Assembly (NCBI GenBank): GCA_039621445.1
Contig: CP154954.1
Location: 45,673,847 to 45,737,846 of the forward strand
DNA length: 64,000 nucleotides
Direction of reading: 5' to 3'
Source: Euglena gracilis
Lineage: Eukaryota
Each line of letters begins with the position of its first letter. Position 1 is the first letter of the stretch. Under the pieces are notes generated by a model that did not search any database, had not been told where the DNA came from, and saw nothing but the letters and a program-made list of their open reading frames with translations. Below, piece by piece: positions 19,973 through 55,368 of this stretch. Position numbers and translations under genes: made by a program.

Positions 19973-20003
<31 letters not shown>

Positions 20004-20910: not shown

Positions 20911-22080
20911 CTAACTGTATCCCTAACCCTAACCCTAACCCTAACCGTATCCCTAACCCTAACCCTAATCCCCAGCCCTAACCGTATCCCTCACTCTAAC
21001 CCTAGCCCTGACCCTAACCCTAACCGTATCCCTAACCCAAACTCTAACCCTGACCCTAACCCTAACCGTATCCCTAACCCTAACCCTAATCCCCAGCCCT
21101 AACCGTATCCCTAACCCTAACTCTAACCCTAGCCCTAACCTTAACTCTAACCCTAACTCTAACCCTAACTGCATCCCTAACCCTAACCGTATCCCCAACC
21201 CAAACTCAAACCGTATCCGTGGCCCGAACTCTAACCCTAACCGTATCCCTAACCCTGACAATAACCGTAACACTAACCGTATCCCTAACCCTAACCCTAA
21301 TCCCTAACCCTAACCCTAACCCTAACCCTAACCCATCCCTAACCCTAACCGTATCCCTAACTCTAACCCTAACCCTAACCGAAACCCTAACCGTATCCCT
21401 AACCCTAACTCTAACCCTAGCCCTAACCCTAACCGTATCCCTAACCCTAACCCTAACCCGAACCCTATCCGTATCCCTAACCCTAACTGCATCCCTAACC
21501 CTAACCGTATCCCCAACCCAAACTCAAACCGTATCCCTGGCCCGAACCCTAACCCTAACCGTATCCCTAACCCTAACAATTACCACCCCCCCCCTTTATT
21601 TGACCCCCCCCCTTAATTGAGCATTTGGGTCCGGGGAAAGTTTTTTTTTTCATGCGCCGAAGGCGCCGAAATTTTTTTTTGCCCTCTTTCTAAAGGAATT
21701 TTTGACCCCCCCCCTTATTTGACCCCCCCCTTATTTGAGCATTTGGGGGGTCCGTTGGCCCGTAGGTGTGCTCAAATAAAGGGGGGGGGGGGTGGTACCG
21801 TAACACTGACCGTATCCCTAACCCTAACCCTAATCCCCAGCCCTAACCGTATCCCTAACCCTAACTCTAACCCTAGCCCTAACCCTAACCGTATCCCTAA
21901 CCCTAACTCTAACCCTAACCGAACCCTAACCCTAACTCTAACCCTAACCCTAACTCTAACCGTATCCCTAACCCTAACTCTAACCCTTACCGTATCCCTA
22001 ACCCTAACCCTAATCCCCAGCCCTAACCCTATCCGTTTCCCTAACCCTAACCCTAACTGTATCCCTAACCCTAACTCTAA
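20910..22080. repeat. Interstitial telomere-like (CCCTAA)n array with CCGTAT/CTCTAA variants
   Basis: Direct reading; interrupted at 21583..21795. Confidence 0.95.
21583..21795. mobile_element. TA-flanked MITE inserted in the telomere-like array
   Basis: TA|CCACCCCC..CTTTATTTGA ... TCAAATAAAGGG..GGTGG|TA. The empty-site equivalent ACAATAACCGTAACACT is present at about 21258. Confidence 0.85.
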
Positions 22081-31597: not shown

Positions 31598-31623
31598 TCT
31601 TTCTGAGTGTCTGTTTTTTTTCG
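31598..31623 (+). other. Euglenid spliced-leader exon copy at the 5' end of retroelement copy 1
   Basis: TCTTTCTGAGTGTCTGTTTTTTTTCG matches the Euglena gracilis SL (ACTTTCTGAGTGTCTATTTTTTTTCG, from memory) at 24/26. It is followed by TCTCC rather than a GT donor. Confidence 0.85.
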
Positions 31624-31855
31624 TCTCCACACGTGCTCATGGCCTGAAAGCCCCGAGTGGGGTCTGAAGTTCAGAAGTACAATTGCCATCAGCAAGCAAC
31701 CCCAAGGTTTGAAGAGTGGATTTGAACTACCTGAAGTTCCAACCTACAACTCAAAAGTGCAAATCCGAGATACAGTACAGTACATACAGACACTGGAGTG
31801 GTTCATCTCCTTGAGGATGCAGTAGCAGCACAACATCATCATCTGCACCAGTTGG

Positions 31856-34524
31856 ATGGAAGTATTATCCCTGTTTCACTATACTTTGCTGTACCACCTG
31901 TGCTGTAACATAGCGTTCACAGTTCCAACCTGCACTGTGGCCCCAGGGCCTTATAAACATTTCACAGAGTTGGCCCCAGGGCCCAAGACTTCAGCCATGA
32001 TGCTGTCCAATTTTGCCCCAGGGCTCAACACATTTCAAGCCAAAACTGGCACAGGAGAGTTTTTCACAAATGTGGCCCCAGGGCCCCAGACTTTTGCCAT
32101 GATGCTGTCAAATTTTGCCACAGGGATCAACACATTTCCAACCAAATGTGGCACAGAAAAGATTTTCACAAATGTCGCCCCAGGGCCCAAGGCTTTTGCC
32201 ATGATGCTGTCAAATTTTGCCACAGGGATCAACACACTTCCAACCAAATGTGGCACAGAAAATTTTTTCACAGATGTGGCCCAAGGGCCCAAGGCTCCAG
32301 CCAAGATGCTGTCCAATTCTGCCCCAGGGCTCAACACATTCCAAGCCAAAACTGGCACAGAAATGTTTTTCAGAGATGTGGCCAAAGGGCCCAAGGCTCC
32401 AGCCAAGACGCTGTCCAATTCTGCCCCAGGGCTCAACACTTTCCAAGCCAAAACTGGCACGGAAATGTTTTTCAGAGATGGGGCCCCAGGGCCCGAGGTT
32501 TCAGCCAAGATGCTGTCAAATTTTGCCCCAGGGCACATCATATTTCCAGCCAAAACAGGCACGGAAGCAGAAAAGTTTTTCAAAGGTGTGGCCCGAAGGC
32601 CCGAAGCTTTTGTCAGGATGCTGTGGAATGTGGCCCCAGGGCACGACAGCCACGGACGGCAACCAAACAGGCTGAATATCACAGCAAAAGACCAGGAAAA
32701 AACACGGTCTGAGTACAGTCCCCCCCGTCATGGCAGGGGCGAAAGCCTTGCCATTTGTGGGGATATTGAAAGCAACCCAGGGCCCACAGAAACCCGCCCT
32801 CCCCAGCAAGAGGACGTTGAAATGGCCTCCGCCTCGCAGAGCTCTGCGTCGCCGCCGACGGAGCAGCCACTCCTCGGATCTTGGTTTCCAATGCACTCGA
32901 CGCCGCTGTTCTCGCCTGCTTTGCCCCAGGCTATAATGCCGCTTCCCATTTTGAACGGGGGCCCCAGGACACCTTCAGCAGAAAAAACCATGGTCATTGA
33001 CGAACTAGAGTCCCGGGTGCGCTCAGCGATTTCCGAAATTCACGGGTGTGGGCCACAGGGCCACGGGTTAATCGGGAATTTTGCGCCATCTCCACCACAA
33101 GGGCAGGAGCAGGAGCGCCTAAATGGTCGAAGACAGCAGCCCCCCGTGGCTCCAGCACCAGCGCAATCCTCGACGAGCGCTGATCCGCTGCAAGTCACTC
33201 CCTTCTCGCAACCTTGCCCACCACTGCAACCATCCTAGGAAGAGATTTCCCAAGACACTCGGGGCACCTTGGTCCATATCCCACGGGGAGCTTTGCAAAA
33301 CGTTGGGCTCGCCTTTTGCGGCATCCTCAGTCGCTTTGTGTCAAAGCCAGGTTGGGAGACCCTGCACGCACTTTGATGCTTCCCAAAAGCTGTGCTTGCT
33401 CCATTGAAGCGGAGCGGGAAAAGCCATTGGGCTGCAGTTGGACGGAAAATTACCGACAGGGCCAATGCCTACCTCAACCGGTCCACAGAAGATTCGTGGA
33501 ATGAGACGCGCCAAATCCGCGCTGCACAAAACCCAAAGAAGAGAACACGAAGTCAGACAAAAAATTTCGACGCTGAAAGCCAAGAAAGGTTGTGCAACCG
33601 TGTTCAAAGCCTTGTCAGCCATGGGGCGGTCAGCAAAGCCTGCCGCATGCTGACTTCTGATGGAATCCAAGATGCAGATGACCCACTGATCTTGGAACGG
33701 TTGGCTGCCTTGCACCCTCCTGAACCCCAACCTGGAAGGCAAAATTTGCCTCCGGACTTCCCGCGCCTCGAATTCGACCTGAGTGAAGATGCAACCAGGG
33801 AGCGCTTAATTGAAATACGGAAAGCAGTCATGTCTTTCCCGAAGGAATCCTCGCCAGGACCGTCTGGACTTCGGCCAGATCATCTTAAAGACATGCTCTC
33901 TGATCCTCTGGGGACACAATCAGATCAACTCCTCACAATTCTGGACCAATTCGTCCGAACATGTTTGACCAACGGAATCCACAACTCTGCGGCTTGGATT
34001 TTCGCTGGTGCCCGTCTGACTCCTCTTCGAAAACCCTGCAATCCAAGCGAAAACCTCGATGAGCTTGGCAATACCAACGCCATTCCTGACCCAAAGAAGG
34101 ATGGCACGCGACCAATTGCAGCTGGGGAATGCCTGCGCCGATTGGTGGGCAAATATTTGATGAGACACCCCAAAATCGGGGACCGCCTAAAAGAACTGCA
34201 GCCACTACAATGCGGTGTAGGGGTCCAGGGGGCATGTGAACTCATTGCCATGGGACTGCAGCAAGAAGTAAATCACCTGCATATGCAACAAGACAACACC
34301 TGGGCTTTGCTACAGGTAGATTTCAGCAATGCTTTTAATTGCGTAAAAAGAAAGACAGTCCTTGCTGAAGTGGCCAAACGCTGCCCGGAGGCGTATGTTT
34401 GGTTCGAGAGCTGCTACGCCGAACACAGCCCGCTCTTTTGTGGGTCATCACACCTTCGCAGTGCTTCTGGTGAACAACAAGGTGACCCTTGTGGCCCAGC
34501 CGGATTCGCCTTGGCGTTACAATC
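31856..34524 (+). pseudogene. Copy 1 polyprotein, 5' part (34-aa repeats, 2A-like motif, RT N-terminal half)
   Basis: One reading frame with two nonsense codons; GRGESLAICGDIESNPGP at 32732..32785. Confidence 0.85.
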
Positions 34525-34714
34525 TGGACGTCTCAGAATATTCTTTTGTTTTTATTGAAATCCTCGGATTCCCAATTTTCCTTGATGTCCCAATTGTTCC
34601 CAAAGACGTAACACAATCAATGAAAAGACATAACCAGAGCCAGCAGTCTGCACAGAGGAAAGGTTCGAATTAGGAATACAAAGTTCGGTTCAGGCGGTTA
34701 GTAAATAGTCCGCA
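34525..34714 (-). repeat. 3' LTR
   Basis: Two substitutions versus 43412..43601 by eye (188/190). Confidence 0.95.
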
Positions 34715-35189
34715 CACGCCCCCCATGCCGGAGGACGCGGCGCCACAGGCACAGGACGAAACGGCATCACACCACAAACAAAATGGCTTTACTATGGTTC
34801 AAGCACGAATGAATGGTGTTCAACACGAATTGTCCACAAAAAAGGTGCAGAACGACAAATGTCAACACAAAGGAAGGTAAAAGAGGTTACTTCCGACGTT
34901 CACCGTGGTCCCTTCACTTCGTGGTTGGCTTGCCGTTCAAAGGTAACACAAACCTGGGCGAAACTCCTCACATCAATGGCAGGTTTGTGACTGAAAGCCT
35001 TCAAAGGTTAGACAACAATCCACCCATGGCGAGGCGGGTTGGTGTCTCCTGACCCGAAAAACCATCCAAAAGGCCCCCTGGGGGGCTTGACTTTCCTCCC
35101 GCGTGACTGAAAGCACGATCAAAACATTTGGGGGGAGGCCAGGCTGTCTCTTGAGATGCCAACCCCCATTCACATTCTGAAACGTCGCA

Positions 35190-38100
35190 AAACATTCTGA
35201 GCGCCTGGCGTAGGATCGATTGTAAATTGTGATCCACACAATAATTCTTGAAAACCTCATTCATTCTGCCTCCTGGTTGCACAAAGCAGGGATTTGTGCT
35301 TATCCTTTTTGGGGGGGTCAAATTCTTATCCGTAGTTATCCGTAGTTATCCGTAGTTATCCGTAGTTATCCGTAATTATCCTTATTTGCTAAAATAATAA
35401 TATCCTTCCTGACAGGGGGTATCCATCTAGAAATAGCTGTAATTGAAAGGATGAAGAGAGTTGATCATCATAAACCTCAGGAATGCCTAAACTTCGTGAA
35501 ATGTGACAATCTAAACAGAAAACGACAAGCATCCAAGGCAGATGGAAACGACAATGTCCGGTGTGGGTTTTTAATCTTTCATCCACCGTTGTTCACAATC
35601 ACCGTTGCAGAACATGCCAACCAGACATTCATTTAGTGTGTTCACAAATCCGATTGTGAACACAAATTTTTTTTTGGTGAACACAGGTGATACACAATTT
35701 TTTTTTTGGTGAACACACGTGATACACAAATTTTTTTTGGTGAACACAGGTGAACACAAATTTTTTTTTGGTGAACACAGGTGAAAATATTTTTTGTGAA
35801 CTGAAACGTCAAACTTTTGTGAATGTAAACATTTCTAAAAGTTGGTGTAGTTTACTTAAACTCGGATTCAACTTGTACGACGTTTTTGGTGAACACAGGT
35901 GAACACAAATTTTTTTTGGTGAACATTGGTGAACACAAATTTTTTTTTGGTGAACATAGGTGATACACAATTTTTTTTTTGGTGATACACATGATACACA
36001 AATATATTTTTTTGGTGAACACACTAACTGAATGTCTGATGCCAACGGCTGCCTGCCGGAGGTTAGACAACATCTTCTGTCAGTTTTTAACATCAATGAC
36101 ACCGGCCAAACTGAAAGCAGCCCATCCCTTTATAGGATGCACGCTGCCAAATGGAAAATTGTTGCGAAAATGGGTTGATATGCTGCTTTGAGCACAGAAG
36201 CTGCATCAGAGACAAATGCAACAACCCTGCCAGCAGAAATTCTCATGCTCCTTAAAACCTCATTGACCTCCTTAGCAAGTTCTTCGAAAAAAGACGACAT
36301 TACTTTTCTTCTTAGAAAACAAACTCGGTGCTCAACGCCATCGTTTGGCCCTTGACAAACCAGAGTGCGAGTTGCCACAACCCCCAAACTTGGGCCCAAC
36401 CAACCAAAATATTGATAATGGCATGCCCTGGTGAATCTGTCTATTCATCAGTTCCAATCCACACTTTTTTGCCAGAGATTGATTTTCGAATGCTTGCGAT
36501 GTGGGTTGAAAACACCCGGCCCACAGACCGATACAACTGACTGCCAACCTTCAGGCTGCCATGAACAGTTGTATACTTCCGATCCAAGGCACGGATCGAA
36601 GGGTGGCCATCATCTCACCCAATTTTAGTTGCACTCGATGGATGGTTGTGCAACAGAAGGGTTCGTGGGGCCTAATTGATACACAGATGCTTTATAACAC
36701 AAAACAACTTCATCTCCAGGTTCCTCCATCAACGCTGCACTGCTCCGGGCTTTTTAACCACCTTTGCCCCTTCCAATTTCAGGAGGGAAATCCATTGACA
36801 GAGAGAAAGAATAGAGCCTGTGGTTGAGGATGTGGATGTGCACTCAAGCTTCCAGTTCATGCATCCTCATTCGTCAAATTTTTTGTTATCCGTAGTTATC
36901 CGTAGTTATCCGTAATTATCCTTATTTGGACTTTTTAGCTCCGTAGTTATCCGTAGTTATCCGTATCCGTATTTGTTTTGGGCGGGCTTATCCGTAGTTA
37001 TCCGTAGTTATCCGTAGTTATCCATTTCAGGATAAGCACAAATCCCTGCACAAAGGAAGCCACAGGCTCCCATGTACTGCTGCTTGCCGGAAAATTCTCC
37101 CACCAAACCAAAAATTTCCATCCCCCTTGGTACTTGTGCTTCAAAATCTTGTAAACATTGTAAAAACCCAATTGAGCTTGTTCTTCTTCTGACATCTGAA
37201 GGGGGGGATCCCCTCCCTGGTCTGGCATGGGGGTGTCACCTCACTGGGTCTCCCACAACCGCTTCACCGGTCAAAAGGTCTGGGTCTTCTTCCAAAAGGC
37301 TTTCTTCATGCAAAGCAACCTCCCACTTTTTGCACAAACCCAAAGAAACATCAATGACCCCTCCCAAAGATGGACTGCTTGCAATTTGCACGGAATTGAA
37401 CCTCGATTTGAGAACCCGAAAAGGTCCTTGCCAGGGGGGGGGAAGCTTGGGCCATGATTTGTTTGGCCATCTTTTGTTGTGCACCAAAACATAGTCATCT
37501 TCTTCAATTTTTGCTGGTACCCTCCCTTTGTTGGCACTCTCAAAATCTTTTTTCCTCAATTCTTTCAATCTCTGGGAAGCTCTTTCTTGAATTTCCATCT
37601 GGGTCAAAAGCCAAGAATGGGTTTCTGGATTTGTCACCGGTTCTGGGTAATTCCAACCTCCAAGGGTCTGCCCAAAACATTTCATGGGGTGACAACATTG
37701 TTGTGGGGAAATCTGCGAGTTCACAAAAATGTGCAATACGGGATCAGCTGCACCCAATTTTTGTCCTTGGAAGACAGACTCAATGCTCGCATATTCTGCA
37801 AAATTTTATTGACATTTTAAAAACCCGTTTGATCGGGGGTTTTTCTTCACGAAATTTCACGTGAGAGCTTTCAGGGGTCTGGTAAAAACCACTCTGTCTG
37901 GCGCACGTCGTTGTCACCTCCACGGGTTTCCAAAAACCAATCACCGGTCAAAATAAGTCTCAAAACCTTCTGGTTACCTCTTTTGACAAAAATGGGACAA
38001 ATTGAGACAAAGCAGCACTAGTCAAAGATTTGCACAAAACCAAAAAAACTTCAGGGGGTCGGGGAACCCGATGTGTTTGGTCTTTTGTTTGAATCTTTTG

Positions 38101-38690
38101 TCATCACAACAAATTTTTTCTTTTTTGCTCATCTCTTCTTTCCTCTGGCTCTTTTCCATCTGGGTCAAAAGCCGGGGTGGGGTCACCGGTTGGGGGTAAT
38201 TCCAACCTCCAAGCTGGTCTGTTTCATGGGGGGTGAATTGTGTGGGGATCTGCGTCGTCATCAATACGGGATCAGCTGCCCAATTCCTTGGAAATCTTGC
38301 GGTACTCATTTTGCGGGGGGTTTCGGGGTAGAGAAAACGATTTCGAATTTTCAAAATCTGTCTGACCAAAGTTCAGCCACGCAGTTCCAAACAGACTTTC
38401 CGGTTATGTTTTCTTGTGTGGGGGATGAATTGGCAAAAATCCACAGTGTGGGGGTCTGTTTTGTCATCAAACACAAAACTTTGCTCATGTTGGAATCGGT
38501 AAAGAACCTACCTTTCCACGCACTGGGCGGGCGGTGCAAATTTCCAACATGTCTTTCTTGGAAACCTTGGACTGAAAATGGCTCAAAAAGAACAACAAAG
38601 TCCTTTCAGCACCAACATGGTTGCTTGCCTTGTGACATTCATCCAAACAAACTTTCAACAAATGAGATGGAACAACCAACTTTCCTTCAA
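35190..38690 (-). pseudogene. Decayed integrase and chromodomain
   Basis: HHCC start (CHKASNHVG) at about 38600; WQGPFRV motif at about 37420; chromodomain YNVYKILKHKYQGGWKFLVWWENFPASSSTWEP at about 37060-37165, split by a hAT insertion. The core is scrambled, with an internal duplication (about 37590-37750 versus 38150-38280). Confidence 0.8.
35287..37048 (-). mobile_element. hAT-like element with a 7-bp TSD, inserted in the chromodomain end
   Basis: 19-bp TIR CAGGGATTTGTGCTTATCC; TSD CACAAAG; subterminal (TTATCCGTAG)n; residual VVAFVSDAASVLKAA transposase-like motif at about 36185-36230. Confidence 0.85.
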
Positions 38691-41600
38691 TACATGGCCT
38701 TGGCAGATCTGAACCAAAACTCATTGTCAATGAAACAGGGTTTTGAAACCTCCACTTTTTCCCAAAAATCCTTCAGCTCTGAATTCAAATAATCCTTTTC
38801 TGACACTTGCACTCTGTGGGACAAACTGAAAATCTTCTGCAAAAACAGGTCAAGCTGCACATCCATTTTCTGAAAAGCGTTCCTTGCTTCTTCCTCAAAA
38901 TGAATTTCAAATTTGTTCTCAAAATCAGCACGAGACAAAAAATCACACAATTCATTTTTGCAACCTGCCACATGAACGATATTCAGTTTGAACTGGTGCA
39001 AAAACACATACATCCTTCTCAGTCTTTTGTTGAGGGGGGGTTCACCCTTCAGGAAAGAGGTGGCTGCCTCATTGTCTGTCATCCACACAATTGGCAGATT
39101 TTGCAAAATCCTCGTTTGTGAAGCAATGGTCAGCACACCACTCAAAATTTCCTTTTCCCAGGTAGTGTATTTTTTTCTTGCCTCACTCCATTTCCAGTTG
39201 TAGTGGCCCAAGGGCACCAACCTCATTTCACTGGGGTAGTTGTTTTTCAGGGTTCCATCCACCTTCACACCACTTGTTCGAAAATTCTCAGGAATTTGTG
39301 TTTGTTGGAGGGTTTGCCACTGAAACAATGCTGAACCACCTCCCAAATCCGAACTGTCAGTCACCAAAACAATCTCTCCTGAACTCCTGGGGGTACCCAA
39401 AACATCAAGAGAAGACAATTTCCTTTTCAATGCATTCAAACAACTCTCCTCCTTTTCAGTCCACCTCCATTTCACATTCTTTTTCAGAAGGTCTGTGAGC
39501 GGGGCTGAGTCAAAAGTAAAACCTTTCACGTGTCTGCGGTAGAAATTCATGGCTCCCAAAATTCGCCTCAAATCCCTTTGATTCTGAACTCGAAAACTCA
39601 GAATTGGTTCAATGTTTCTTTTGTTTGCCTGCCACATTCCCCATCCCAACGAGAAACCCAAATAGTCAATGGACTGATTCAGAAAGGAACATTTGCTCAA
39701 TTTGATTCTCACTTGGTTCTTTCTGCAAACTTCAAACCACTTTTCCAAAAGATACAAATGATCCTCCTCAGAGTTTGCACCAACCCCTGTGTCATCAAAA
39801 AAAGAAGCCAGGTGTCCATCCTTCAAAATCTCTCTCACCCTCAAATCCGTTTTGCATTGGGAGGTTAGAATTTCCATCAGCTCCTGAAAAATACCCGGTG
39901 CATTACTTAGGCCAAACATCATTCTTTTGGGACGAAAACACCTCCCAGAAGGAATGCAAAATGCAGACAAATTTGCTGCTCTTTTTGTGATTGGGATTTG
40001 CCAATACCCACTCCTCATGTCCAGGGTACTTTTCCAGCGACATTTGGCCAAACTTTCAATCAAAACCTCCATGCTTGGCAAATAACCTGCATGTGCCTTG
40101 CTTCTGGCATTCAATTTTCCATAATGGATGACCATCCTTCTGGTACTTGACCCTTTTTTGTCCACCAAAAATGTGGGGCTGCACACCTGGGGGATTTCAC
40201 CAACCGGGAATTGCTCAATCAACCCTGACTTTAGCAATTCTTCACACTGAAGGTCAATTTCTTTTTCATCCTCCTGAGGCATGGGCCAACACTTTTGCCT
40301 TAGGGGTTTTCCTTCCCACTCAGGCTTCAGCTCAATGTCCATCAAAACAGGCAGGGGGGAAGACTCAGAAATTGTGGGCAATGGTCCAAAAACATCAGAA
40401 AATTTCACCAAAAGCTCATACAACCTGGGGTGGTCTCTGAATTTCTCAACTTCTTTTTCAAACTCTCCACTCAGATTCTCAGTAAACAATTTGCTGCTTT
40501 TTTCATCAGCCTTTTTCTGGGCCTCCAAAGTCCAAATCTTTTCATGCAAAACTTGGGAAATGCTTTTGAGTTCATCCATCTTGATTGTTGCCTTGGGAGT
40601 TTTCACAGGTTTTGCAAACTGCACATCTTCCACAGGCTGGGCCAGCTGGAAAAACATCACCTCCACATCTTTTCTCACCTCTTGAAAAAGACTCAGCTCA
40701 CTTTCAATGTCCTTGGTCAACTCAGCCAAAAAATTGTTGTTTTCATGCTCATTCATTGGTTCAAACACCACCACATTGTCCAACCATTCTTTCACCTTTT
40801 CATCTGATTCCTTGGGGGGAACATTCTCCAAAGGAAAACTGGGACTTTCAAAAACTTGCTTGTCTGCAGGTGGACTGGCAGGCTGGGGTGCCTGTTGTTG
40901 GGGGGGGACATCAGGAAGAACTGGGAAATCCACTTGAATTCCATCATCCACTGTGGGATACTTCCTGATCTCACCTCTCAGTTCATCCAAACTCCAATTC
41001 CTTGAAACTTTTCTGAGCCAACTGACAATTTTGGGGTCCAAAAGCTCAAAATCCACTTTGAATTGCACAGTGTCCACCACACTCACAAAAGTGTTCACCT
41101 TTTTGCACCTGTCACCCACAAACAAGGGAACCCCACTTGAAATTTTCACCCTGGCCACTGTCACCCTTTCCAGCAGGGGGGACCAGTACTGGTCCACCCA
41201 GTCTGGGTGTACCAGGACCATTTTTGTTTCTTCAATGCACAACTTTGTCACCACTTTGCTTAGTTGGCTGAAGGGGGGGTTTGCCCACAGAAACTTGGAA
41301 GCACCAATGTCACACAACAACCTTTCCCATGAATACCTGTAGGCTGAATTCCCTTTTGTCATGTACAAAGACTGGGTGTGGTTCAGGTGGTTTGCAAAAA
41401 GATCAATGCAAATCTGACCCTCAGAAATCTTCAATTCATCCAAAGCTTTTGTCTTCACTGGCTTCACCAAAGTGTAGCTTTCTGTCTTGAAAAGTCTGAA
41501 AATTATTTTGATGGTGTGGTCCCCATCATGGCTCTGAAGTAAAAACTCCTCACCATCAACGATGATTCTGGGGGGTCTGGTCAGCAACCCACCAAAAAAT

Positions 41601-41710
41601 TCACTTTCAGTAAAGTCAGTCCCCAAAACTGCCTCGAAGGCATTTGTTTCAACAACAACCGCTTTAAGCTTTAGAACTTTTCGTCCCAACTCCAGGCTCA
41701 CCTCACACAC
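38687..41710 (-). CDS. pol: protease C-terminus, N6-adenine MTase-like domain, RT, RNase H
   Basis: VLGTDF; DLFA...WANPPF...LVHPDW...W; SPTFLVDK, TLDMRSGYWQI, MMFGLSNAP and FFDD; TDSS, EKE, TDN and DFLSR. Confidence 0.9.
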   Translation of the reverse strand: MCEVSLELGRKVLKLKAVVVETNAFEAVLGTDFTESEFFGGLLTRPPRIIVDGEEFLLQSHDGDHTIKIIFRLFKTESYTLVKPVKTKALDELKISEGQICIDLFANHLNHTQSLYMTKGNSAYRYSWERLLCDIGASKFLWANPPFSQLSKVVTKLCIEETKMVLVHPDWVDQYWSPLLERVTVARVKISSGVPLFVGDRCKKVNTFVSVVDTVQFKVDFELLDPKIVSWLRKVSRNWSLDELRGEIRKYPTVDDGIQVDFPVLPDVPPQQQAPQPASPPADKQVFESPSFPLENVPPKESDEKVKEWLDNVVVFEPMNEHENNNFLAELTKDIESELSLFQEVRKDVEVMFFQLAQPVEDVQFAKPVKTPKATIKMDELKSISQVLHEKIWTLEAQKKADEKSSKLFTENLSGEFEKEVEKFRDHPRLYELLVKFSDVFGPLPTISESSPLPVLMDIELKPEWEGKPLRQKCWPMPQEDEKEIDLQCEELLKSGLIEQFPVGEIPQVCSPTFLVDKKGSSTRRMVIHYGKLNARSKAHAGYLPSMEVLIESLAKCRWKSTLDMRSGYWQIPITKRAANLSAFCIPSGRCFRPKRMMFGLSNAPGIFQELMEILTSQCKTDLRVREILKDGHLASFFDDTGVGANSEEDHLYLLEKWFEVCRKNQVRIKLSKCSFLNQSIDYLGFSLGWGMWQANKRNIEPILSFRVQNQRDLRRILGAMNFYRRHVKGFTFDSAPLTDLLKKNVKWRWTEKEESCLNALKRKLSSLDVLGTPRSSGEIVLVTDSSDLGGGSALFQWQTLQQTQIPENFRTSGVKVDGTLKNNYPSEMRLVPLGHYNWKWSEARKKYTTWEKEILSGVLTIASQTRILQNLPIVWMTDNEAATSFLKGEPPLNKRLRRMYVFLHQFKLNIVHVAGCKNELCDFLSRADFENKFEIHFEEEARNAFQKMDVQLDLFLQKIFSLSHRVQVSEKDYLNSELKDFWEKVEVSKPCFIDNEFWFRSAKAMY

Positions 41711-41714
41711 TCCT

Positions 41715-42965
41715 CACCGTTGCCGATCTGCAGGGGTACCGCAGCACTACGTTGAATTTTATTCTCTGGAACACATTTCTTAGAAACTGCAGTTATGGTG
41801 GCCCCAGTGTCCAAAATGGCTTGAATTTCCTTTCCATAAACCCTCACTGGCAAAAGATAAGTTTTACACACCATCTGGAGCAATTGTAAAGCATCAGCCT
41901 TTCTCTTTTTGGGGTTCTCACCCTGGGGGGTAACCTGGGTTTGCACTCCCTGGGGTTGAACCGAAGGGGTCCCTTTGCCTGCCCCCTTCTGGGCTGCTGC
42001 CTTCTTAAACTTTTCTTTTGACCAACATCTGTCTTCATAATGCCCTTTTTTTGTGACAAAATCGACAGAAAATTGTGGCTCCAAATCGTGGGGCTGGGGT
42101 GTCATCAACTTTTCTTTCACCCTTGCCTTTGCCTTTTCCTTTGCCTTTTCCTTTTCCACCAGATTTTCCACCTTTTCCAGATTCTGGGACATTTTCACCA
42201 ACTTTTTCAGATTGATCAGGGGGTCATTCAATCAATGGTCTGAGATTTTCTTTTTTCAGCAAATTCCTCTCCAACCAATCTTCAGAACTTTTTTCCAAAA
42301 TCGTTTTTCTCAAATCTGTGAATGTCTCAGAACGATGTTTGTAAAATCTGTCTGCCCTGATGTCTGCATACATTCTGGGGTGTAATTTCCTCAGCAAAAC
42401 CAAAAACTTTTCCTGTTCACTCATGGCCTGGGGGCTCAACCTGGCCATCAAATTGTCCAACTCAATGAAAAGTTTTTTGATGTCTTGGGGTTCGGGGTTC
42501 TGGGAAAGTGCTGGCAATTTGTCAATGGCAGACCTCAAAGTCATGTCATTTTCCAGTGTTGGGAACAAATTTGCAATTTCCAACAGCACTTTTTCAAAAT
42601 CATCATTCTCATCCATCACTTTTTCAACCAGTTTTTTCACCTTGGGGGTGCAACATTCCAACAGCCAATCCTTTTTCTGGACATTTCCAAATGCAATTGC
42701 ACCAGTTAACCTCAACCATCTGCCAAAATCTTTCAAAAACTCAGGCCAATTTGCACCATCAAACTCTGGCAATTTCACAGGGGGTAATCTTGAACTTTGG
42801 GTTGAACTTTGGCTGGGGTTGCTGGAATTTGGTTCCACAATTTGCTTCAGAAAATGTTTCAACCTGGGTGATGGGGTTCACAGGGGTAAACACAGACTGA
42901 CTGTTGCTGGCTGATTTGATTTCCAATTCTTGCAACCTTCTTTCCAAATCTTCAATGGAGGACAT
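41715..42965 (-). pseudogene. gag, zinc knuckle and aspartic protease (frameshifted)
   Basis: PVKLPEFDGANWPEF gag motif; CRFCHKKGHYEDRC across a frameshift near 42045; AILDTGA protease motif. Confidence 0.85.
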
Positions 42966-43395
42966 TTCTGCAGATCACCTTCAAAAAAAACTCAACCACT
43001 GGCTCTGTAAACTGGGAGAAACAGAAACACTGGCCAACCCAAAAAGACAAACAAAAACTGAAGAAACCAGAACAGAAAACCAACCACTGGGTTCAGGACC
43101 AGGTCAGCAAGATGATGAAGAACTTGCCTCCACCAAGATCTTGTTCTGGACAGCAAGGTGAACAACACCACTTACAAACTTCCTCAACCAAATAACCAAT
43201 ACAACAACTGTTGACAAATTCTCCACTGTGAACTTGTTCACCACAACCTCAATGTCAACTTCCTGTTGAAGGTGTTGTTCTGTACCAGCAACTTGGTTAA
43301 CCTTGCCTTCTGGAAGTCCAACTTCTGGATCTTCAACAACCAGTGAAACAATGTTGAATCTCCTCGAAGACGTCTTGGACGATTGGAACAACAAA

Positions 43396-43407
43396 CCTCT
43401 GCGACCA
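43396..43407 (-). promoter_or_regulatory. Primer binding site, probably tRNA-iMet type
   Basis: TGGTCGCAGAGG, 4 nt inside the 5' LTR; one mismatch to the metazoan iMet-type PBS TGGTAGCAGAGG. Confidence 0.6.
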
Positions 43408-43411
43408 ACTT

Positions 43412-43601
43412 TGGACGTCTCAGAATATTCTTTTGTTTTTATTGAAATCCTCGGATTCCCAATTTTCCTTGATATCCCAATTGTTCCCAAAGATGTAACA
43501 CAATCAATGAAAAGACATAACCAGAGCCAGCAGTCTGCACAGAGGAAAGGTTCGAATTAGGAATACAAAGTTCGGTTCAGGCGGTTAGTAAATAGTCCGC
43601 A
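43412..43601 (-). repeat. 5' LTR
   Basis: Direct repeat of 34525..34714. Confidence 0.95.
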
Positions 43602-43606
43602 CAATC

Positions 43607-45248
43607 TCTCGTTGAGTCCTTGCAAGACGTGGTGCCACTCCAATTGTGGTATTTGGATGATGGACACATCCTGGGAACCCTCCCACAATTACATGCAGCA
43701 ATTACAGAAATCCAACGACAGGGGACGCTACTAGGCATACACCTCAACCCAAAAAAATGCCGCCTGTGGGGACCTGCAGCAACAGAAGCCAATCGTGCTG
43801 AAATGCCGCCAAACAGCCCACTTCGTGCAGTCCCAATCGTGAACTACTCCCCCGATTCTGGTATACGTGCCTTGGGAATCCCGGTTTGCCATCCACAAAG
43901 CGGTGACTTTGCGGGGGAAGTGTGGGCTGAACGTGCAACAGGTGTGCAGAAAGCTTGCCGGGCCCTTTTGAACCTGCCGCAAGCCCATATTCAGTTCTGC
44001 CTTTTGCGATCTTGCCTAGATGCATGCAAAGTTAACGACCTCATGCGTGCAACAGAACTGGGGCAGGCAAAAGACGCATGTGCACTGCTGACTAAAGAAA
44101 TCAGGAACACATTGAGCAACATTGTTGGATCCCCAATCGATGACAACCAATGGGCTCAGGCCACCCTGCCCGCGCGTCATGGCGGACTCGGAATTCGGGA
44201 CCCATCGTTGGAACGTCTCCCAGCACGCATGTCCGGCATTGTGACATTTGTCAGCAATGGCAGACGCACCTTGGGCCTGGCAGACCGAGGAGTACCGAAA
44301 GACACTGCGGAGTGCTTGTCCTCTGCCAACTCCATCCTCGAAGGAACGCCCCCAACGGAAACATGGGCCACGGATGTATCACTCCTGAACGAAGCCCAAA
44401 GCCCTCACATTCAACAGAAGTGGTGGGGTGAATGCTTTGCGAAACAACGACAAAAGGCATTATCTTCCAACCTTCACGGCCAAGACGCTGTCCGGTTCGC
44501 AAGCCAACAACGGCCCCACGCAATGGCCTGGGCTTCTGACACACCATCCTCTGGACTGAAAACATTGGTCGCATCTGCAGAATTCAAAGGCTTTCTAAAG
44601 TGGTCACTGGGAGCACCAGTATGTCCACCAACGGGATCTACGTGCCCACGCTGCTCCAAGCCAATGGACAACCTGGGTAATCACCTTGTATGCTGCAGCT
44701 CAAATGGCATCACGCGGCGACACGGTGCGATCCAGGACTTTGTGTTCCAATTGGCACATGATGCCGGGTTTACAGCAAAAAAAGAACAAGGTGGTTCAGA
44801 GAGAACACGCCCGGGCGATGTGCTCATCAGCAGACTTGACGCCAATGGTCCTGGAGCAGTGGACATCACAGTGAGACACACAGCAGCACCGTACAGACCG
44901 TTGCGTGACGCAGCTGAACTAACCGAATGGTATGAACGCCAAGAGAAGGAAAAGCATTCAAAATATGACGCCACCTGTAGGAGGCTGGGATGGACCTGCA
45001 TTCCATTTGTTGTCGACTGCTATGGCGGCCTAGGCCAAGAAGCGCTAACCCTAATGTCAACACTGATGAAGCTTCTCCTCGGTCAACAAGATGCATGGTC
45101 AAAACACAAAACTGAAGCCAACACATGGCAACTTCTATCAATAACTGTTGCGCGAGAGATCGCGCGACAAGTAATCTGGGGACGTTATGCAGGTAACGAC
45201 ACAGATCCAGAAGCAACCAACACCATACACCAGCCGTACTGTCTGTAA
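43607..45248 (+). pseudogene. Copy 1 polyprotein, 3' part (RT YLDD, zinc knuckle, RLE endonuclease)
   Basis: Continues in frame after removing the LTR element and one TSD (ALQSLVESLQDVVPLQLWYLDDG as in copy 2). Confidence 0.9.
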
Positions 45249-45814
45249 AGAAGACCATTGCGATCCCTGGTCCCAGAGTAAATAATTCACCTAAGACCAT
45301 CCACAACTCTTCATCAAGCAAACAACAGTACCCAATCATCCATAACCTGTGCCTCACATTGGCAAGACAAGTGGCCCGCCAGCCGGCATGGGGAACTATG
45401 GCGGTACCTACCTGGAGCGGTGGATCCCACCACCCAAAGCCAATACGAATTGGAGTGAGCAATTTGACCAACCGCTCTCCCACCCCATCCCTCCAAACAA
45501 AAACAAACAAAAACCACAAGCACACACACACCACACACACACACACACACACCAGCCACCACGCCCCCCGCCTCTCACCCCCAACGCACCTCACACAACA
45601 TCCGCCAAGCTACCCCTCGCCCCTCCGTCTTACCTGCTACCAAGGCCGCTCGTCTTTACACTCCCACACCTGTACCTCGGACAGGCCGCTGATTCCGCTT
45701 CTGTATATAGCCCTACCCCTGAACACTCAAATCCAGTAGGCTGTGCCACTGGTCGGTGGACTCGGCTCGCCCCACCACCGGACTGCTGTCGTTTTCAGAC
45801 GTAAAAAAAAGGGT

Positions 45815-47369
45815 TTTTTTGCCCGAGAGGTACAGGTCACGCTGCAAGGTGCGAACGCTTTCTGTGTGAATGCATCTCAATTCTCTATTGCCTCCATTCT
45901 TGAATTCAGCGTCTGAGTCAGTTTTGAAATTTTGTTCTTATTTCAGGTGGAAGGGTTGGGTGCATACCAGATGGACACAGGAATGATCATCCCTGGTAAC
46001 CCGCGCAGGGTTTTGAATTTGATCGAAGATTTGAAGGTTGCTGCAATGGGCCAGCGACACACCTCATCATCGCCAACTGGCGTATTACGAATGTTAATGT
46101 GTGAAAAACTTTGCCTGCAAGTTGCGGTCCTGCGGTTGTAATTCTCTCTTGCAGTGTTAAATGCCTTGCGCCTCTTGCAGTTTCTGTTGCTCTTCTTTTT
46201 TTGTTTTGGCGTGTGTCTCTGGCCAATTTGTCGGCCAGGAAAAAAAATTAAATTCTCGCAATTTCAATTTTTTTTTGCAATCAAATTGCTTAAAAAATCT
46301 GGAGTTGGAAACAAAATTTTTGTTTGCAAGACTTTCCCCTGAAAAGCACAAACTTTTTGCACATAGTCCGCCCAGGATTCACCTTCAGTGATATGAAGAA
46401 GGTTTTTCAGCCCCGGTTTGACTGTTTTTCTGTTTGACTTTTCCCGTGAGGGGAAACGGCGCTCCTCCTGGCACAGTAGAGCAGGGAAAGTGCTTTCCGC
46501 GAAGAAGTGAAAAAAAAGGAAAACCTGCCGACAACGCTGAGCGACCCAGGTGACAAAAAGCGATTGCAGCGTGAGGATTTTTTCGACTGCCGCCGCACGC
46601 AAAATATTACTTGTTCTCTATTTTGTCCAGTCGCATAAAACTTGACGTTTTGTGTATCGTGCCGAGTGGTGCTTTGAGGGTACTTTTTCACCCAAGCGAC
46701 TTCTGTTCGTAAAATCGCCCAGAGGGGAGGCTTGAGAGAGCAAAAAAGCTATTCGGATATTTTTGAAAATTTTGAAGAAAAAAAAATTCCGCAATTTTTC
46801 TTTCACAGCTTCCTCAAAAGGAAAAATAACACTCAGACGAAGAGGTGAGAAGGAATCAAAATGAGGCCACTGTGGCAGGTTGGAAATTCCTTTTTTTTTG
46901 AAAGAAAAACAATTTCCAAATTTTGATCATTTTTGCCAACAACATGAAACAAACTGTTCAAAGAAACAAAAGCAACCAGAACAGTCAAGCAAAGAAATTT
47001 GCAGGCGACAAAAGGCAGGGAAAAAACAGCAGTAAGATTCCCAATCCGCGGACAGTCAGAGGCTGACAGGCAAAGTTTTTCACACATTAACATTCGTAAT
47101 CCGCCAGTTGGCGATGATGAGGTGTGTCGCTGGCCCATTGCAGCAACCTTCAAATCTTCGATCAAATTCAAAACCCTGCGCGGGTTACCAGGGATGATCA
47201 TTCCTGTGTCCATCTGGTATGCACCCAACCCTTCCACCTGAAATAAGAACAAAATTTCAAAACTGACTCAGACGCTGAATTCAAGAATGGAGGCAATAGA
47301 GAATTGAGATGCATTCACACAGAAAGCGTTCGCACCTTGCAGCGTGACCTGTACCTCTCGGGCAAAAAA
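45815..47369. mobile_element. Foldback element with ~300-bp near-perfect inverted arms
   Basis: 45815..46117 is the reverse complement of 47067..47369, and the ORF track shows mirrored peptides. No clear TSD. Confidence 0.8.
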
Positions 47370-47482
47370 CACTTCCCACCAGGCAATTAAGGATTCCCCG
47401 CGGGCGAATTACAACGAAAAACGCAATAGCGTCGGTTAAGGACATGGGGCGAGTACTACCATCACTTTTAGGATTTGCGTTG

Positions 47483-47502
47483 TGAGTGTCTATTTTTTTT
47501 CG
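47483..47502 (+). other. Euglenid spliced-leader exon copy at the 5' end of retroelement copy 2
   Basis: TGAGTGTCTATTTTTTTTCG is a perfect match to the 3' 20 nt of the SL; ATG follows at 47517. Confidence 0.85.
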
Positions 47503-47516
47503 TCTGCATAATCACC

Positions 47517-48305
47517 ATGGCTGCAAAGGGGCCGGATGGCCCTCCAGAAGACCCCAAGACTCAAGACAATATACTCCTTGTCAACCAAGCTGCTACCACA
47601 ACCAACCCTTCAAGTACACCCACTGTTGCAGTGGACACTGGACAGTTGGAGCTGCTGGCCAAGATGTTGTTGCCGCTGTTGGTGCCGGTGCTAACCACTG
47701 CTGTGGCACAACGACTCATTGCTGACCGCCCTGTACATAGTGACAGAGAAAGTCAAGACAGCAGCTCACAGAGAAGGAAGAGGACATGGCAAGAGAGGGA
47801 AGAGCATGAAGAGTACCTACAGAGAAGGTTTGGAAGAGATTACAAGCCCCCATGGCAGAGAGGTCGACCCAGTTATCATATATCTCAACAGAGTTCTCCT
47901 CAGCCCCAGCTCCACCAGCAAGTGAGTCTGGGGCCCCCCTGTACAGCAAGCCCAACAGTGGGCATTCCACAGTCAGGCCCATCAGTGGGCATTCCAATGA
48001 ACAGCCCATTCCAATGCCCACCAGTGGGTAGAAGTCAAGTATGTCCATCTGTCACATCAATCATACAAATGTACATTCCATCACAGACCAACCTTTGGGG
48101 TGAACCCCAGCAATCTCAGCAACCACTGCAATCAAACTGGAGCAGAGAAGATGACCAGAGGAGGAATTGGACCAGAGAAGAAGAGCAGAGAAGGAGAGAG
48201 GTTGAACTCTTCAGAAGCCTCAGAGCCTTTCTCAGCACAGGCCAGAGTACACAAGTCCCCCCCCTCCCAACACCATTACACTACCTGGCCTGCCAGCACC
48301 CTTAA
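47517..48305 (+). CDS. First ORF after the SL in copy 2 (Pro/Gln/Arg-rich, unknown function, possibly gag-like)
   Basis: ATG 14 nt after the SL; 262 codons; no recognised domain. Confidence 0.5.
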   Translation: MAAKGPDGPPEDPKTQDNILLVNQAATTTNPSSTPTVAVDTGQLELLAKMLLPLLVPVLTTAVAQRLIADRPVHSDRESQDSSSQRRKRTWQEREEHEEYLQRRFGRDYKPPWQRGRPSYHISQQSSPQPQLHQQVSLGPPCTASPTVGIPQSGPSVGIPMNSPFQCPPVGRSQVCPSVTSIIQMYIPSQTNLWGEPQQSQQPLQSNWSREDDQRRNWTREEEQRRREVELFRSLRAFLSTGQSTQVPPLPTPLHYLACQHP

Positions 48306-49005
48306 TCCCAGATGTGGTACTGGCATCACCATCAGCCTTCCAATGTGCTTTTCTGCCTGCAGCTTTCCCTTTTGTCTCACAAAGTCCCCCCCAAAGAGGG
48401 GACAATTCAACACAATACCTTCACCCAGTAAAACAAATGGATCAACAATTTCTTCCAAAGGCAACTCCAAATCAAAAGGAGTCAGCAAAACAACCCCCCC
48501 CACCCAAAAGAGGAGGATCATCAACCCCAGCCAAATGCAACTCCAAAAAATCTCAGCACCAGCCCCCCAATATCAGCCCCCCCTGCAAAAGGGGGGGGGC
48601 CAGGCCCACCGTTTCGCATTTTTAAAATTCCAACAAAACCCACCATGTTTGATGGCACACAGTGGGCCAAACTGGGCACAGTGATCCTGCAGGAGGAACC
48701 CAGCCCCTTTCAAAGGCAAGACCCCCCCCAGGCAACAGATTTACCAGCCTCCCCACCCAACACCCCCCTGGAAGGAGTTCCAGTTTGGGAAAAACCAGAG
48801 TTTCGGTCCCCCAGGGAAGAATTTTTTTGGAGAAGGCGCATGAGACAGCAAGCAGGAGGCTTTTTATTTCACGAGATGGTCGCCAGAAAACTGGCCAACA
48901 TTCAGGAAAAGTGGGTCGACATTGGCAGAACAGTGGACATTCGGCAGTCACAAAAAATGGTGCACACAGACATGAAAATCACGTTGCCACTGGCAGCGCC
49001 AAACG

Positions 49006-55000: not shown

Positions 55001-55368
55001 ACAGCAGCACCGTACAGACCGTTGCGTGACGCAGCTGAACTAACTGAATGGTATGAACGCCAAGAGAAGGAAAAACATTCAAAATATGACGCCACCTGTG
55101 GGAGGATGGGATGGACCTGCATTCCATTTGTTGTTGACTGCTATGGCGGCTTAGGCCAAGAAGCACTGACCTTAATGTCAACACTGATGAAGCTTCTCCT
55201 CGGTCAACAAGATGCATGGTCAAAACGCAAAACTGAAGCCGACACATGGCACTTCTATCAATAACTGTTGCGCGAGAGATCGCGCGACAAGTAATCTGGG
55301 GACGGTATGCAGGCAACGACACAGATCCAGACGTAACCAACACCATACACCAGCCGTATTGTCTGTAA
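49006..55368 (+). pseudogene. Copy 2 polyprotein with four 2A-like motifs, RT and RLE
   Basis: GDVETNPGP (49546), GDVQTQPGP (49954), GDVQLEPGP (50635) and GDIESNPGP (50881); GVQQGDP, WYLDDG and RPGD motifs. Confidence 0.85.
52194..53453. mobile_element. Non-autonomous hAT element inside the RT of copy 2
   Basis: Ac-like TIR CAGGGATGG / CCATCCCTG; 8-bp TSD TTGCTATG at 52186..52193 and 53454..53461. Copy 1 shows the empty site (CTCATTGCCATGGGA). Confidence 0.95.

Follow-up and report, generated by a model that had tools for sequence, protein, structure and literature searches.

The locus analyzed here, on the minus strand (34525-43601) of a 64,000-nt stretch of Euglena gracilis DNA (hereafter, the window), raises the question whether an LTR retrotransposon carries an adenine methyltransferase domain between its protease and its reverse transcriptase (RT), as proposed in a preliminary description made from the sequence alone. 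Very probably, it does: the stretch is best described as encoding a Dam-like (PF05869-type) methyltransferase (DAM) domain that belongs to a DAM-LTR, i.e., a Ty3/Gypsy, chromodomain-bearing element with a single gag-protease-DAM-RT-RNase H-integrase-chromodomain polyprotein.

The direct TG..CA LTRs with 2 differences in 190 positions and the 5-bp target-site duplication (TSD) that had been reported are both present in the sequence (Table 1). The TSD is confirmed by a paralogue without the insertion located in the same window (53700-53765), where CAATC occurs once. Sequences resembling a polypurine tract (PPT) and a primer-binding site (PBS) adjoin or lie close to the LTRs; given that the Rfam and tRNA scans yielded no matches, the PBS-like 12-mer is without a matching tRNA. 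The DAM-bearing element is nested within another retroelement, and in a tblastn search with pol across the window the element itself is the sole copy found.

Table 1. Features of the DAM-bearing element in the window
Feature	Position	Strand	Details
Target-site duplication CAATC, left copy	34520..34524	.	5 bp, adjoining 3' LTR
3' LTR	34525..34714	-	190 nt, TG..CA; 2 mismatches to the other LTR
PPT-like G run adjoining 3' LTR	34715..34726	-	Direct reading of the sequence
Pol tail after the chromodomain, last ~33 codons	35187..35285	-	tblastn, P0003 aa 1651-1683
Foreign insertion, 1769 bp	35278..37046	.	31-nt tandem repeats at 35669-36025; gap in the P0003 mapping
Chromodomain	37049..37162	-	Pfam Chromo, E 4e-6, 27.1 bits (cutoff 25.1)
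Integrase C-terminal region, two frames	37281..37816	-	tblastn, P0003 aa 1403-1584; frame changes near 37724 and 37255-37281
Rearranged stretch at the expected integrase catalytic core	37821..38442	-	Faint traces only, 38308-38520
Integrase zinc-finger (H2C2) remnant, other frame	38539..38673	-	Pfam Integrase_H2C2, E 0.024; tblastn, P0003 aa 1215-1295
RNase H	38990..39463	-	Pfam RT_RNaseH_2, 6.7e-11; RT_RNaseH, 5.1e-7
RT core	39650..40087	-	Pfam RVT_1, 2.1e-21; pol aa 543-688
Linker between DAM and RT, ~235 aa, poorly conserved	40304..41008	-	28-41% identity to relatives
Dam-like N6-adenine methyltransferase domain (P0002), predicted	41009..41506	-	DLFA 41404-41393; NPPF 41281-41270
Aspartic protease	41579..41856	-	Pfam RVP and related families, tblastn; halves in different frames, shift near 41700-41713
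gag ORF	42224..42877	-	Frame differs from that of the protease; resembles N-terminal parts of P0004/P0005 by eye; Pfam Ty3_capsid only E 0.13
PBS-like 12-mer, separated from 5' LTR by 4 nt; element strand reads TGG...	43396..43407	-	Direct reading of the sequence
5' LTR	43412..43601	-	190 nt, TG..CA
Target-site duplication CAATC, right copy	43602..43606	.	5 bp, adjoining 5' LTR

The order of the encoded parts is gag, protease, a DAM domain of ~165 aa, RT, RNase H, integrase remnants and chromodomain. The assignment to the LTR/Ty3 type, as opposed to DIRS, stands, in view of the direct LTRs, the TSD, the chromodomain and the integrase-type architecture of the relatives. Typical of Ty3/Gypsy elements are, in addition to the TG..CA LTRs with a TSD, the protease-RT-RNase H-integrase order, seen in the window and in P0003 and P0158, and the Ty3-like RT, which is classified here by its closest solved chains, 8r0s (5e-34) and the Ty3 RT 4ol8 (1.2e-28). 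The DDE integrase core (rve) is absent from the window copy in the Pfam scan, faint traces aside (E 0.007), but present in relatives, so that the family possesses a Ty3/Gypsy integrase and the window copy is defective. The chromodomain at the C-terminus of the integrase, the defining feature of chromoviruses, exceeds the Pfam cutoff as had been claimed, and is found also in P0003, P0158 and P0160. Pfam scans of the ORFs of the element identify no tyrosine recombinase family. Thus, the DAM domain is encoded inside a non-DIRS LTR retrotransposon, which is what distinguishes DAM-LTRs. The C5 methyltransferase of EpiLTRs (DAM, DNMT and chromodomain) has no counterpart here, with no Pfam DNA_methylase match in the window pol, P0003, P0158 or P0171; among the matches, DAM occurs together with a DNA_methylase similarity, itself weak (E 6e-4), only in the distant P0110.

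The motifs that first drew attention to the domain, IDLFA (41407-41393), SAYRYSW, LWANPPF and LVHPDWVDQYW, occur exactly in the minus-strand translation, all beyond the protease end (AVLGTDF) and ahead of the RT. Profiles of phage N6-adenine methyltransferases are the best or the sole match of the domain in all three libraries searched. Pfam Dam (PF05869) is matched with E 4.5e-4 when the search is started with the whole ORF and with E 3.6e-5 and 23.9 bits (gathering score 28.1) when it is started with the domain alone; TIGR01712, phage N6-adenine methyltransferase, with E 1e-4 and 21.9 bits (equivalog cutoff 97.05); and PHROG 111, DNA methyltransferase, with E 3.6e-6. All three matches are significant and those to Pfam and TIGR lie below the curated cutoffs, so that, as judged by sequence comparison, the domain represents a significant but distant branch of Dam-like N6-adenine methyltransferases. 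The nearest clusters in the protein atlas are eukaryotic, and in one of them PF05869 is annotated on 11% of the members. A chance match of motifs was considered and rejected given the Pfam Dam match of the isolated domain and its 396 homologues at E<=1e-3.

Searches of solved structures by sequence identify no relative: the domain alone yields no match at E<=10, and the single chain matched by the family profile (E 1.1) is unrelated. An AF2 model of the domain (pLDDT 93.3, pTM 0.89) has the predicted fold of class I methyltransferases, with N6-adenine methyltransferases as the top structural matches. The top Foldseek matches are to KsgA, with E 1e-4, and to the cap adenosine N6-methyltransferase, with E 2e-4, and the VIA-align Z scores are 9.4 for PCIF1, 8.3 for ErmC', 8.2 for KsgA, 7.5 for E. 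coli Dam, 7.2 for T4 Dam and 6.6 for M.TaqI; the best fold matches are, accordingly, RNA rather than DNA adenine methyltransferases. In the predicted topology, DLFA ends strand 1 (32-36) and NPPF directly follows strand 4 (72-75), and both the catalytic (D/N)PP(Y/F/W) signature and the motif-I-like loop are found in the model as well as in the relatives. Only ~35 residues separate strand 1 from strand 4, so that the SAM-binding half is minimal.

Homologues of the domain comprise 396 representatives at E<=1e-3, 117 of these at E<=1e-10. Pfam Dam is matched by 55 of 71 family members at E<=0.01 (best E 1.1e-11), and one of them, P0042, exceeds the gathering score with 29.9 bits. The conserved columns include, among aligned relatives, D35 (117/138), F37 (133/139) and A38 (122/139) in the motif-I-like loop; N76 (146/150), P77 (143/150), P78 (134/150) and F79 (129/150) in motif IV; and K88 (148/150), so that the NPPF signature is conserved well beyond this copy. 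The same protease-DAM(-RT) order is observed in P0003, P0004, P0005, P0006, P0158 and P0171, at 45-60% identity; e.g., P0158 is a single ORF of 1928 aa with protease, Dam, RVT_1, RNase H, H2C2, rve and Chromo, and P0003 and P0171 are similar. More broadly, the C-terminal motif of the protease is present in 24 of the 40 matches with >=70 aa upstream of the domain, and the Pfam protease and Dam are both detected in 8 of 20 longer representatives. In a quick, unrooted tree with SH-aLRT support, built from 103 rows (50%-identity cluster representatives, five relatives and the window), the window DAM sits among protease-linked domains, which account for at least 26 of the rows, most of these of metagenomic origin. 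Identity to relatives is 48-60% for DAM, 55-66% for RT (three full-length relatives and P0006) and 28-41% for the linker. Constraint has thus maintained DAM as an integral component of pol, and these comparisons are evidence that it is no less constrained than RT. The segment is not a copy-specific insertion, being shared by six diverged relatives, and a contig of sequencing run X15 (record 21, 41032-41653) reads on from DAM into the end of the protease.

The copy in the window is itself defective and cannot be autonomous: it has several frameshifts, carries 1769 bp of foreign insertion and lacks a recognizable integrase core. The pol frame had been described as uninterrupted; a frame of 1008 aa (38687-41713) is indeed open, but the change of frame near 41700-41713 leaves the DTGA half of the protease in another ORF (41698-42231), and gag sits in a third frame. 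Contig records 15 (X11) and 28 (X20) span the frame change at 41713, with 16 gapped letters relative to the window at unplaced positions; the change may be private to the window copy or an assembly error. Of the claimed integrase HHCC, a weak H2C2 remnant is detectable, no more, and the core is unrecognizable. Within the rearranged stretch where the core is expected, 38153-38293 is a 69% duplicate of 37592-37772, and contigs of other copies depart from the window sequence on both flanks, at 37801-37841 and 38468-38520. The rearrangement is judged by these edge-diverging contigs and not by depth (low in run X1, almost none in X11), absence of cover proving nothing. Contigs from all four of the sequencing runs contain the joint 35277->37047, without the foreign insertion. 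Run X20 is an RNA library with possible DNA carry-over, so that contig cover there cannot demonstrate transcription. The recent activity that the preliminary description read from the LTR similarity is therefore arguable for the family, but not for this non-autonomous copy, which is dead as well as nested and belongs to a family heavily represented in the contigs of one run.

The architecture of DAM within an LTR element is already known from a preprint (bioRxiv 10.64898/2026.05.21.726589, May 2026), which describes "DAM-LTRs", including chromodomain-bearing ones in E. gracilis. Like the window element, these are Ty3/Gypsy-type LTR elements with a prokaryote-like DAM, a conserved Asn-Pro-Pro pocket, a modelled five-strand sheet with flanking helices, and a chromodomain. 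They differ in that the protease-DAM-RT order is not stated in the main text, and one lineage has DAM between integrase and RT. The EpiLTRs of the same preprint share DAM and the chromodomain with the window element, their C5 methyltransferase being the difference. The methyltransferase domain of DIRS1-like elements (PMC3266345) belongs to the same domain family; in DIRS, however, it follows RNase H, in elements with a tyrosine recombinase, inverted or split repeats and no TSD, whereas in the window it follows the protease in an element with direct LTRs, a 5-bp TSD, an integrase-type architecture and a chromodomain. The DIRS order is echoed in two of the matches, P0156, with RT upstream of Dam, and P0063, with the end of RNase H upstream. 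The phage enzymes (PF05869, TIGR01712, PHROG 111) are likewise ~165 aa long (profile lengths 165-169), with motif I followed by an NPPF-type motif IV, whereas the window domain forms part of a retroelement polyprotein, scores below the curated cutoffs and is a methyltransferase by prediction. Chromoviruses and Ty3 share with the window element the LTRs, the TSD, PBS- and PPT-like sequences, the protease-RT-RNase H-integrase-chromodomain order and a similar RT; what the window element adds is the methyltransferase domain and the ~235-aa linker between protease and RT. In the available portions of the Chlamydomonas v6 and Ectocarpus transposable element papers, Dam domains in Gypsy elements are not reported.

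A retrotransposon with its own DNA-adenine "writer" beside a chromatin "reader" would be in a position to determine the epigenetic state in which its new copies are established, and few mobile elements in conflict with a host use a strategy of this kind. This idea is already in the preprint, so the window adds a well-dissected example and not a discovery; specific to this example are the exact insertion boundaries, verified with a paralogous site that lacks the insertion, the protease-DAM-RT order and the RT-like constraint on the domain. Following the cDNA-methylation model that the preprint proposes, the polyprotein would be translated and processed by the protease, so that DAM would travel with RT in the particle; DAM would then use SAM to place 6mA on the newly made cDNA (RNA:DNA hybrid or duplex); and the chromodomain would guide integration, after which a host 6mA maintenance enzyme could keep the new copy in permissive chromatin. 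We only infer the methylation of the element's own cDNA, and the mechanism as a whole is offered tentatively, at somewhat less than an even chance. According to the preprint, 6mA is higher on DAM-LTR DNA, eukaryotic DAMs expressed in dam-deficient E. coli cause no rise of 6mA, and the expression of DAM-LTRs is not raised in E. gracilis.

These observations also bear on two other roles for the domain. It could be an RNA adenine methyltransferase that deposits m6A or m6Am on the genomic RNA or mRNA of the element, affecting packaging, translation or stability instead of leaving a mark on DNA. Such a role would fit the negative E. coli assay, which concerned other eukaryotic DAMs, and the ranking of fold matches, headed by RNA N6-adenine methyltransferases, namely the cap-specific adenosine methyltransferase (Z 9.4), which also has NPPF, and then ErmC', KsgA and DIMT1. 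However, PDB seemingly contains no PF05869 structure, so that this ranking cannot discriminate between enzymes acting on DNA and on RNA; the fold is matched by E. coli Dam and T4 Dam, too; every sequence-profile match is to phage DNA N6-adenine methyltransferases; and the enrichment in the preprint is of 6mA on DNA. Taken together, an RNA substrate seems quite improbable. A non-catalytic domain, i.e., a structural or a SAM/nucleic-acid-binding module of the polyprotein that, for instance, recruits a host 6mA enzyme, is compatible with the same assay, with the compact SAM-binding half of the model and with the sub-threshold profile scores, but the phage family members are equally small, and the catalytic N-P-P-F loop as well as the motif-I-like D-L-F-A hardly vary over 396 diverged relatives, as expected of an active site and not of a scaffold; we consider this reading unlikely.

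It is scarcely credible that the DAM segment is an artefact, whether from the nesting of a DIRS fragment in a single Gypsy copy or from chimeric assembly. The preprint does warn that nested insertions and chimeras occur in E. gracilis, and the window element is nested in another retroelement. Nevertheless, the domain, the end of the protease and RT are all read in the same open frame, the identical order recurs in the six relatives named above, DAM divergence keeps step with that of RT, the X15 contig spans the domain into the protease end, and the scanned ORFs lack a tyrosine recombinase. As far as the present data go, the shared order, the X15 contig and the single frame refute a DIRS fragment or chimera.

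It can be suggested, as a doubtful conjecture, that the protease-DAM-RT chromoviruses form a lineage that was under-sampled or missed in the preprint: its DAM screen used hmmsearch at E<=1e-5, and members of this family score 20-28 bits against Pfam Dam. In such a lineage, DAM located just upstream of RT could mature as an N-terminal extension of the latter, which would physically couple adenine methylation to cDNA synthesis.

The host is most probably a Euglena: the spliced leader of E. gracilis, in the sequence printed in PMC6242988, has two near-matches in the window, where none is expected by chance.

The minus strand of positions 34525-43601 holds, as analysis of its repeats, flanks and ORFs reveals, a single LTR retrotransposon that carries an N6-adenine methyltransferase-like domain between protease and reverse transcriptase (RT), a reading put forward in the preliminary description and sustained here by profile matches, fold and conserved order; all motifs named there lie exactly where they were placed in the minus-strand translation. 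CAATC is found on either side of the LTR pair, and the window also contains an element-free copy of the landing sequence, 92-94% identical, in which the flanks join around one CAATC (53700-53765). Since this copy is uninterrupted and has a single CAATC, it shows directly where the element was inserted and that 5 bp of target were duplicated, a duplication also part of that description; repeat comparison bears out the direct TG..CA LTRs as well. The sequence hosting the element is itself a retroelement, and the insertion interrupts its RT ORF (33377-34558, Pfam RVT_1 with E 5.2e-6), which picks up again at 43596 with a YLDD box.

Features of the LTR retrotransposon and its surroundings
Feature	Position	Strand	Remarks
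LTR pair	34525-34714 and 43412-43601	minus	direct repeats, TG..CA ends, 190 nt, 2 mismatches
Primer-binding-like site	43396-43407	minus (element's strand)	12 nt, TGG..., adjoins LTR; read from sequence
gag	42224-42877	minus	ORF in different frame from protease
Aspartic protease	41579-41856	minus	directly before Dam-like domain in order
Dam-like domain	41009-41506	minus	after protease, before linker
Linker	between Dam-like domain and RT	minus	about 235 aa, poorly conserved
RT	after linker	minus	RVT_1, E 2.1e-21
RNase H	after RT	minus	
Integrase zinc-finger remnant	after RNase H	minus	weak, E 0.024
Integrase C-terminal region	after zinc-finger remnant	minus	
Chromodomain	37049-37162	minus	27.1 bits, cutoff 25.1
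Insertion inside element	35278-37046		1769 bp; 31-nt tandem repeats at 35669-36025
Polypurine-like tract	34715-34726	minus (element's strand)	G-run, adjoins LTR; read from sequence
Host retroelement	31826-34558 and 43596-45248	plus	long ORFs, sole Pfam match RVT_1
Host retroelement, second copy	47472-55589		
Inverted repeat pair	45815-46117 and 47067-47369		303 bp, 99.7% identity, between the two host-retroelement copies
Spliced-leader near-matches	31600-31623 and 47479-47502	plus	24-nt 3' part; 1 and 2 mismatches, respectively

The nearest solved chains to the RT are 8r0s, annotated 'Enzymatic polyprotein' (5e-34), and then Ty3 RT 4ol8 (1.2e-28). The chromodomain of the preliminary description is recovered over its cutoff; of the integrase HHCC, a zinc-finger remnant is found, and this only weakly.

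The presence of the domain and its homology to adenine methyltransferases are established by matches to Pfam Dam (PF05869, E 3.6e-5), NCBIfam TIGR01712, phage N6-adenine methyltransferase (E 1e-4), and PHROG 111, DNA methyltransferase (E 3.6e-6), which are significant, yet each under its curated cutoff; these three libraries yield nothing else of note. When 1.84 billion representatives are searched in full with HMMER, 396 relatives reach E<=1e-3, of which 117 reach E<=1e-10. Among 71 aligned members (the window's domain and 70 of 154 local hits, included if at least 115 query residues were covered and length was at most 420 aa), 55 match Pfam Dam individually, the best with 1.1e-11. The motifs are conserved too: over the aligned hits, the columns of DLFA (D 117/138, F 133/139, A 122/139) and NPPF (N 146/150, P 143/150, P 134/150, F 129/150) are near invariant, and K88 (148/150) and W103 (138/144), numbered along the domain, are further conserved positions.

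An AlphaFold2 model built from the alignment predicts a methyltransferase fold with confidence (pLDDT 93.3, pTM 0.89). In this model, DLFA lies at the end of the first strand and NPPF right after strand 72-75, where motifs I and IV canonically sit. The top Foldseek matches are KsgA (1e-4) and a cap adenosine N6-methyltransferase (2e-4); a search independent of Foldseek ranks PCIF1 (Z 9.4), ErmC' (8.3), and KsgA and DIMT1 (both 8.2) ahead of the DNA enzymes E. coli Dam (7.5), T4 Dam (7.2) and M.TaqI (6.6), Z of 7-9 being middling by the tool's own scale. The weight of this ranking lies in a list made up of adenine-N6 methyltransferases and in its agreement with the sequence profiles.

The domain belongs to the element and is no local accident. 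A word-indexed search finds four polyproteins with the domain at 45-57% identity among 269 candidates; these and two cluster mates were examined for architecture. P0003 (1684 aa, the closest full-length relative) and P0158 (1928 aa) have protease-Dam-RT-RNase H-H2C2-rve-Chromo, each in a single ORF, P0006 has protease-Dam-RT, P0171 Dam-RT-RNase H-integrase, and P0004 and P0005 protease-Dam. Thus, the protease-methyltransferase-RT order extends beyond the window (P0003, P0006 and P0158), and a copy-specific insertion is ruled out by this order in relatives and by a contig of sequencing run X15 (record 21, 41032-41653) that leads out of the domain and into the end of the protease. Scans of 20 longer representatives detect Pfam protease with Dam in eight, protease only in one, RT ahead of Dam (the DIRS order) in one, the domain beside a weak match to C5 methylase in one, Dam alone in three and nothing at E<=1e-3 in six. 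The protease C-terminal motif precedes the domain in 24 of the 40 hits with at least 70 upstream residues by a strict pattern, with variants in four more by eye. A quick, unrooted tree built from 103 segments of the domain places that of the window among 31 rows that form a supported group (SH-aLRT 97). The upstream context is readable for 14 of these rows, and 13 are protease-linked. A second supported group, of 28 rows, has none that are protease-linked and takes in the RNase-H-linked row together with five whose upstream context is of some other kind. The domain has co-evolved with pol: its identity to relatives is 48-60%, compared with 55-66% for RT (three full-length relatives and P0006), 56-71% for RNase H (P0003, P0158, P0171) and 28-41% for the linker, so that its conservation tracks RT and RNase H and is well above that of the linker. 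P0003 also contains, at aa 882-1015 in the RNase H region, an insertion of about 130 aa, low-complexity by eye, that is absent from the window's copy.

In DIRS elements, pol is described as RT-RNase H-methyltransferase, with the function of the methyltransferase part unknown (PMC3266345). A preprint dated 22 May 2026 (bioRxiv 10.64898/2026.05.21.726589), the one relevant work to come up in full-text literature searches, reports in its text 10,030 eukaryotic DAM proteins with a conserved Asn-Pro-Pro pocket, claims to be first in finding DAM domains in LTR elements other than DIRS (DAM-LTRs), puts chromodomain-bearing LTR elements at 30.9% of DAM-TEs, and defines five DAM-LTR lineages, one a Euglena group, and EpiLTRs, which have a cytosine methylase in addition. 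The window's element fits the DAM-LTR class as described in that text; this kind of element is already described, the family being matched by class description only. The protease-DAM-RT order is not stated in the preprint's main text, and its screen (hmmsearch E<=1e-5) is stricter than the scores of this family against Pfam Dam (20-28 bits). Pfam scans detect no cytosine methylase in the window's pol or in P0003, P0158 and P0171; the element is therefore no EpiLTR, and that identity was rejected. A distant relative of the domain, P0110 (959 aa, 34% identity), also matches C5 DNA_methylase, though weakly (E 6e-4), and, by sequence, looks like a fragment of the EpiLTR type.

The window's copy, a defective, nested member of this kind, is dead. 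Its reading frame changes relative to P0003 near 41713 (inside the protease), 38688, 37724 and 37255-37281, and the gag frame differs again from the remaining ones. Of the catalytic core of integrase (P0003 aa 1296-1402), the copy shows no more than faint traces (E 0.007), after which the region downstream is partly duplicated (69%). Contigs from other runs diverge from the window on entering 37801-37841 and 38468-38520, and those of all four runs compared lack the 1769-bp insertion, joining 35277 to 37047. Across the four runs, 6031 of 14958 contig pieces are at least 99% alike to the element, run X1 having the largest share of matching pieces. The largest ORF of the 1769-bp insertion (36130-36444) has no Pfam match; its repeat block shows length variants among X1 contigs, and the 1769-bp sequence is therefore itself a repeated one. 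Given the near-identical LTRs, insertion of the element is recent, yet the copy is unable to move by itself; of the recent activity proposed from the 2/190 differences, the recent insertion stands and an active copy does not.

As to function, we tentatively favor, at somewhat short of an even chance, a role in marking cDNA: the domain would travel with RT and methylate adenines of the nascent cDNA, the chromodomain would guide integration, and a host maintenance enzyme would then perpetuate the adenine mark. In the preprint's text (bioRxiv 10.64898/2026.05.21.726589), 6mA is higher on DAM-LTR copies in two ichthyosporeans and E. gracilis, and expression in dam-deficient E. coli gave no 6mA. 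The latter result suggests a non-catalytic module, which we consider unlikely, and the fold ranking points to an RNA adenine methyltransferase, a reading of still lower probability. An artefact of nested insertion is contradicted by the conserved order and is exceedingly improbable.

Several minor observations concern the surrounding sequence. The 550-aa part downstream of the host retroelement's RT matches no family in a Pfam scan and contains, by eye, a Cys/His cluster. The near-matches to the E. gracilis spliced leader (sequence from PMC6242988), of which none is expected by chance, point to a Euglena as the probable host. Each of them shortly precedes the ORFs in one member of a pair of related elements with an RT, which share 88-94% identity (32627-34524 and 43607-45470 vs 50770-55589), and neither is followed by GT. 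From sequence, they look like the result of reverse transcription and insertion of trans-spliced transcripts, or like part of an element family with the leader at its 5' end. Elsewhere, positions 20001-22000 show a strong local GC skew of -0.43, compared with about +/-0.1 in the rest of the window.
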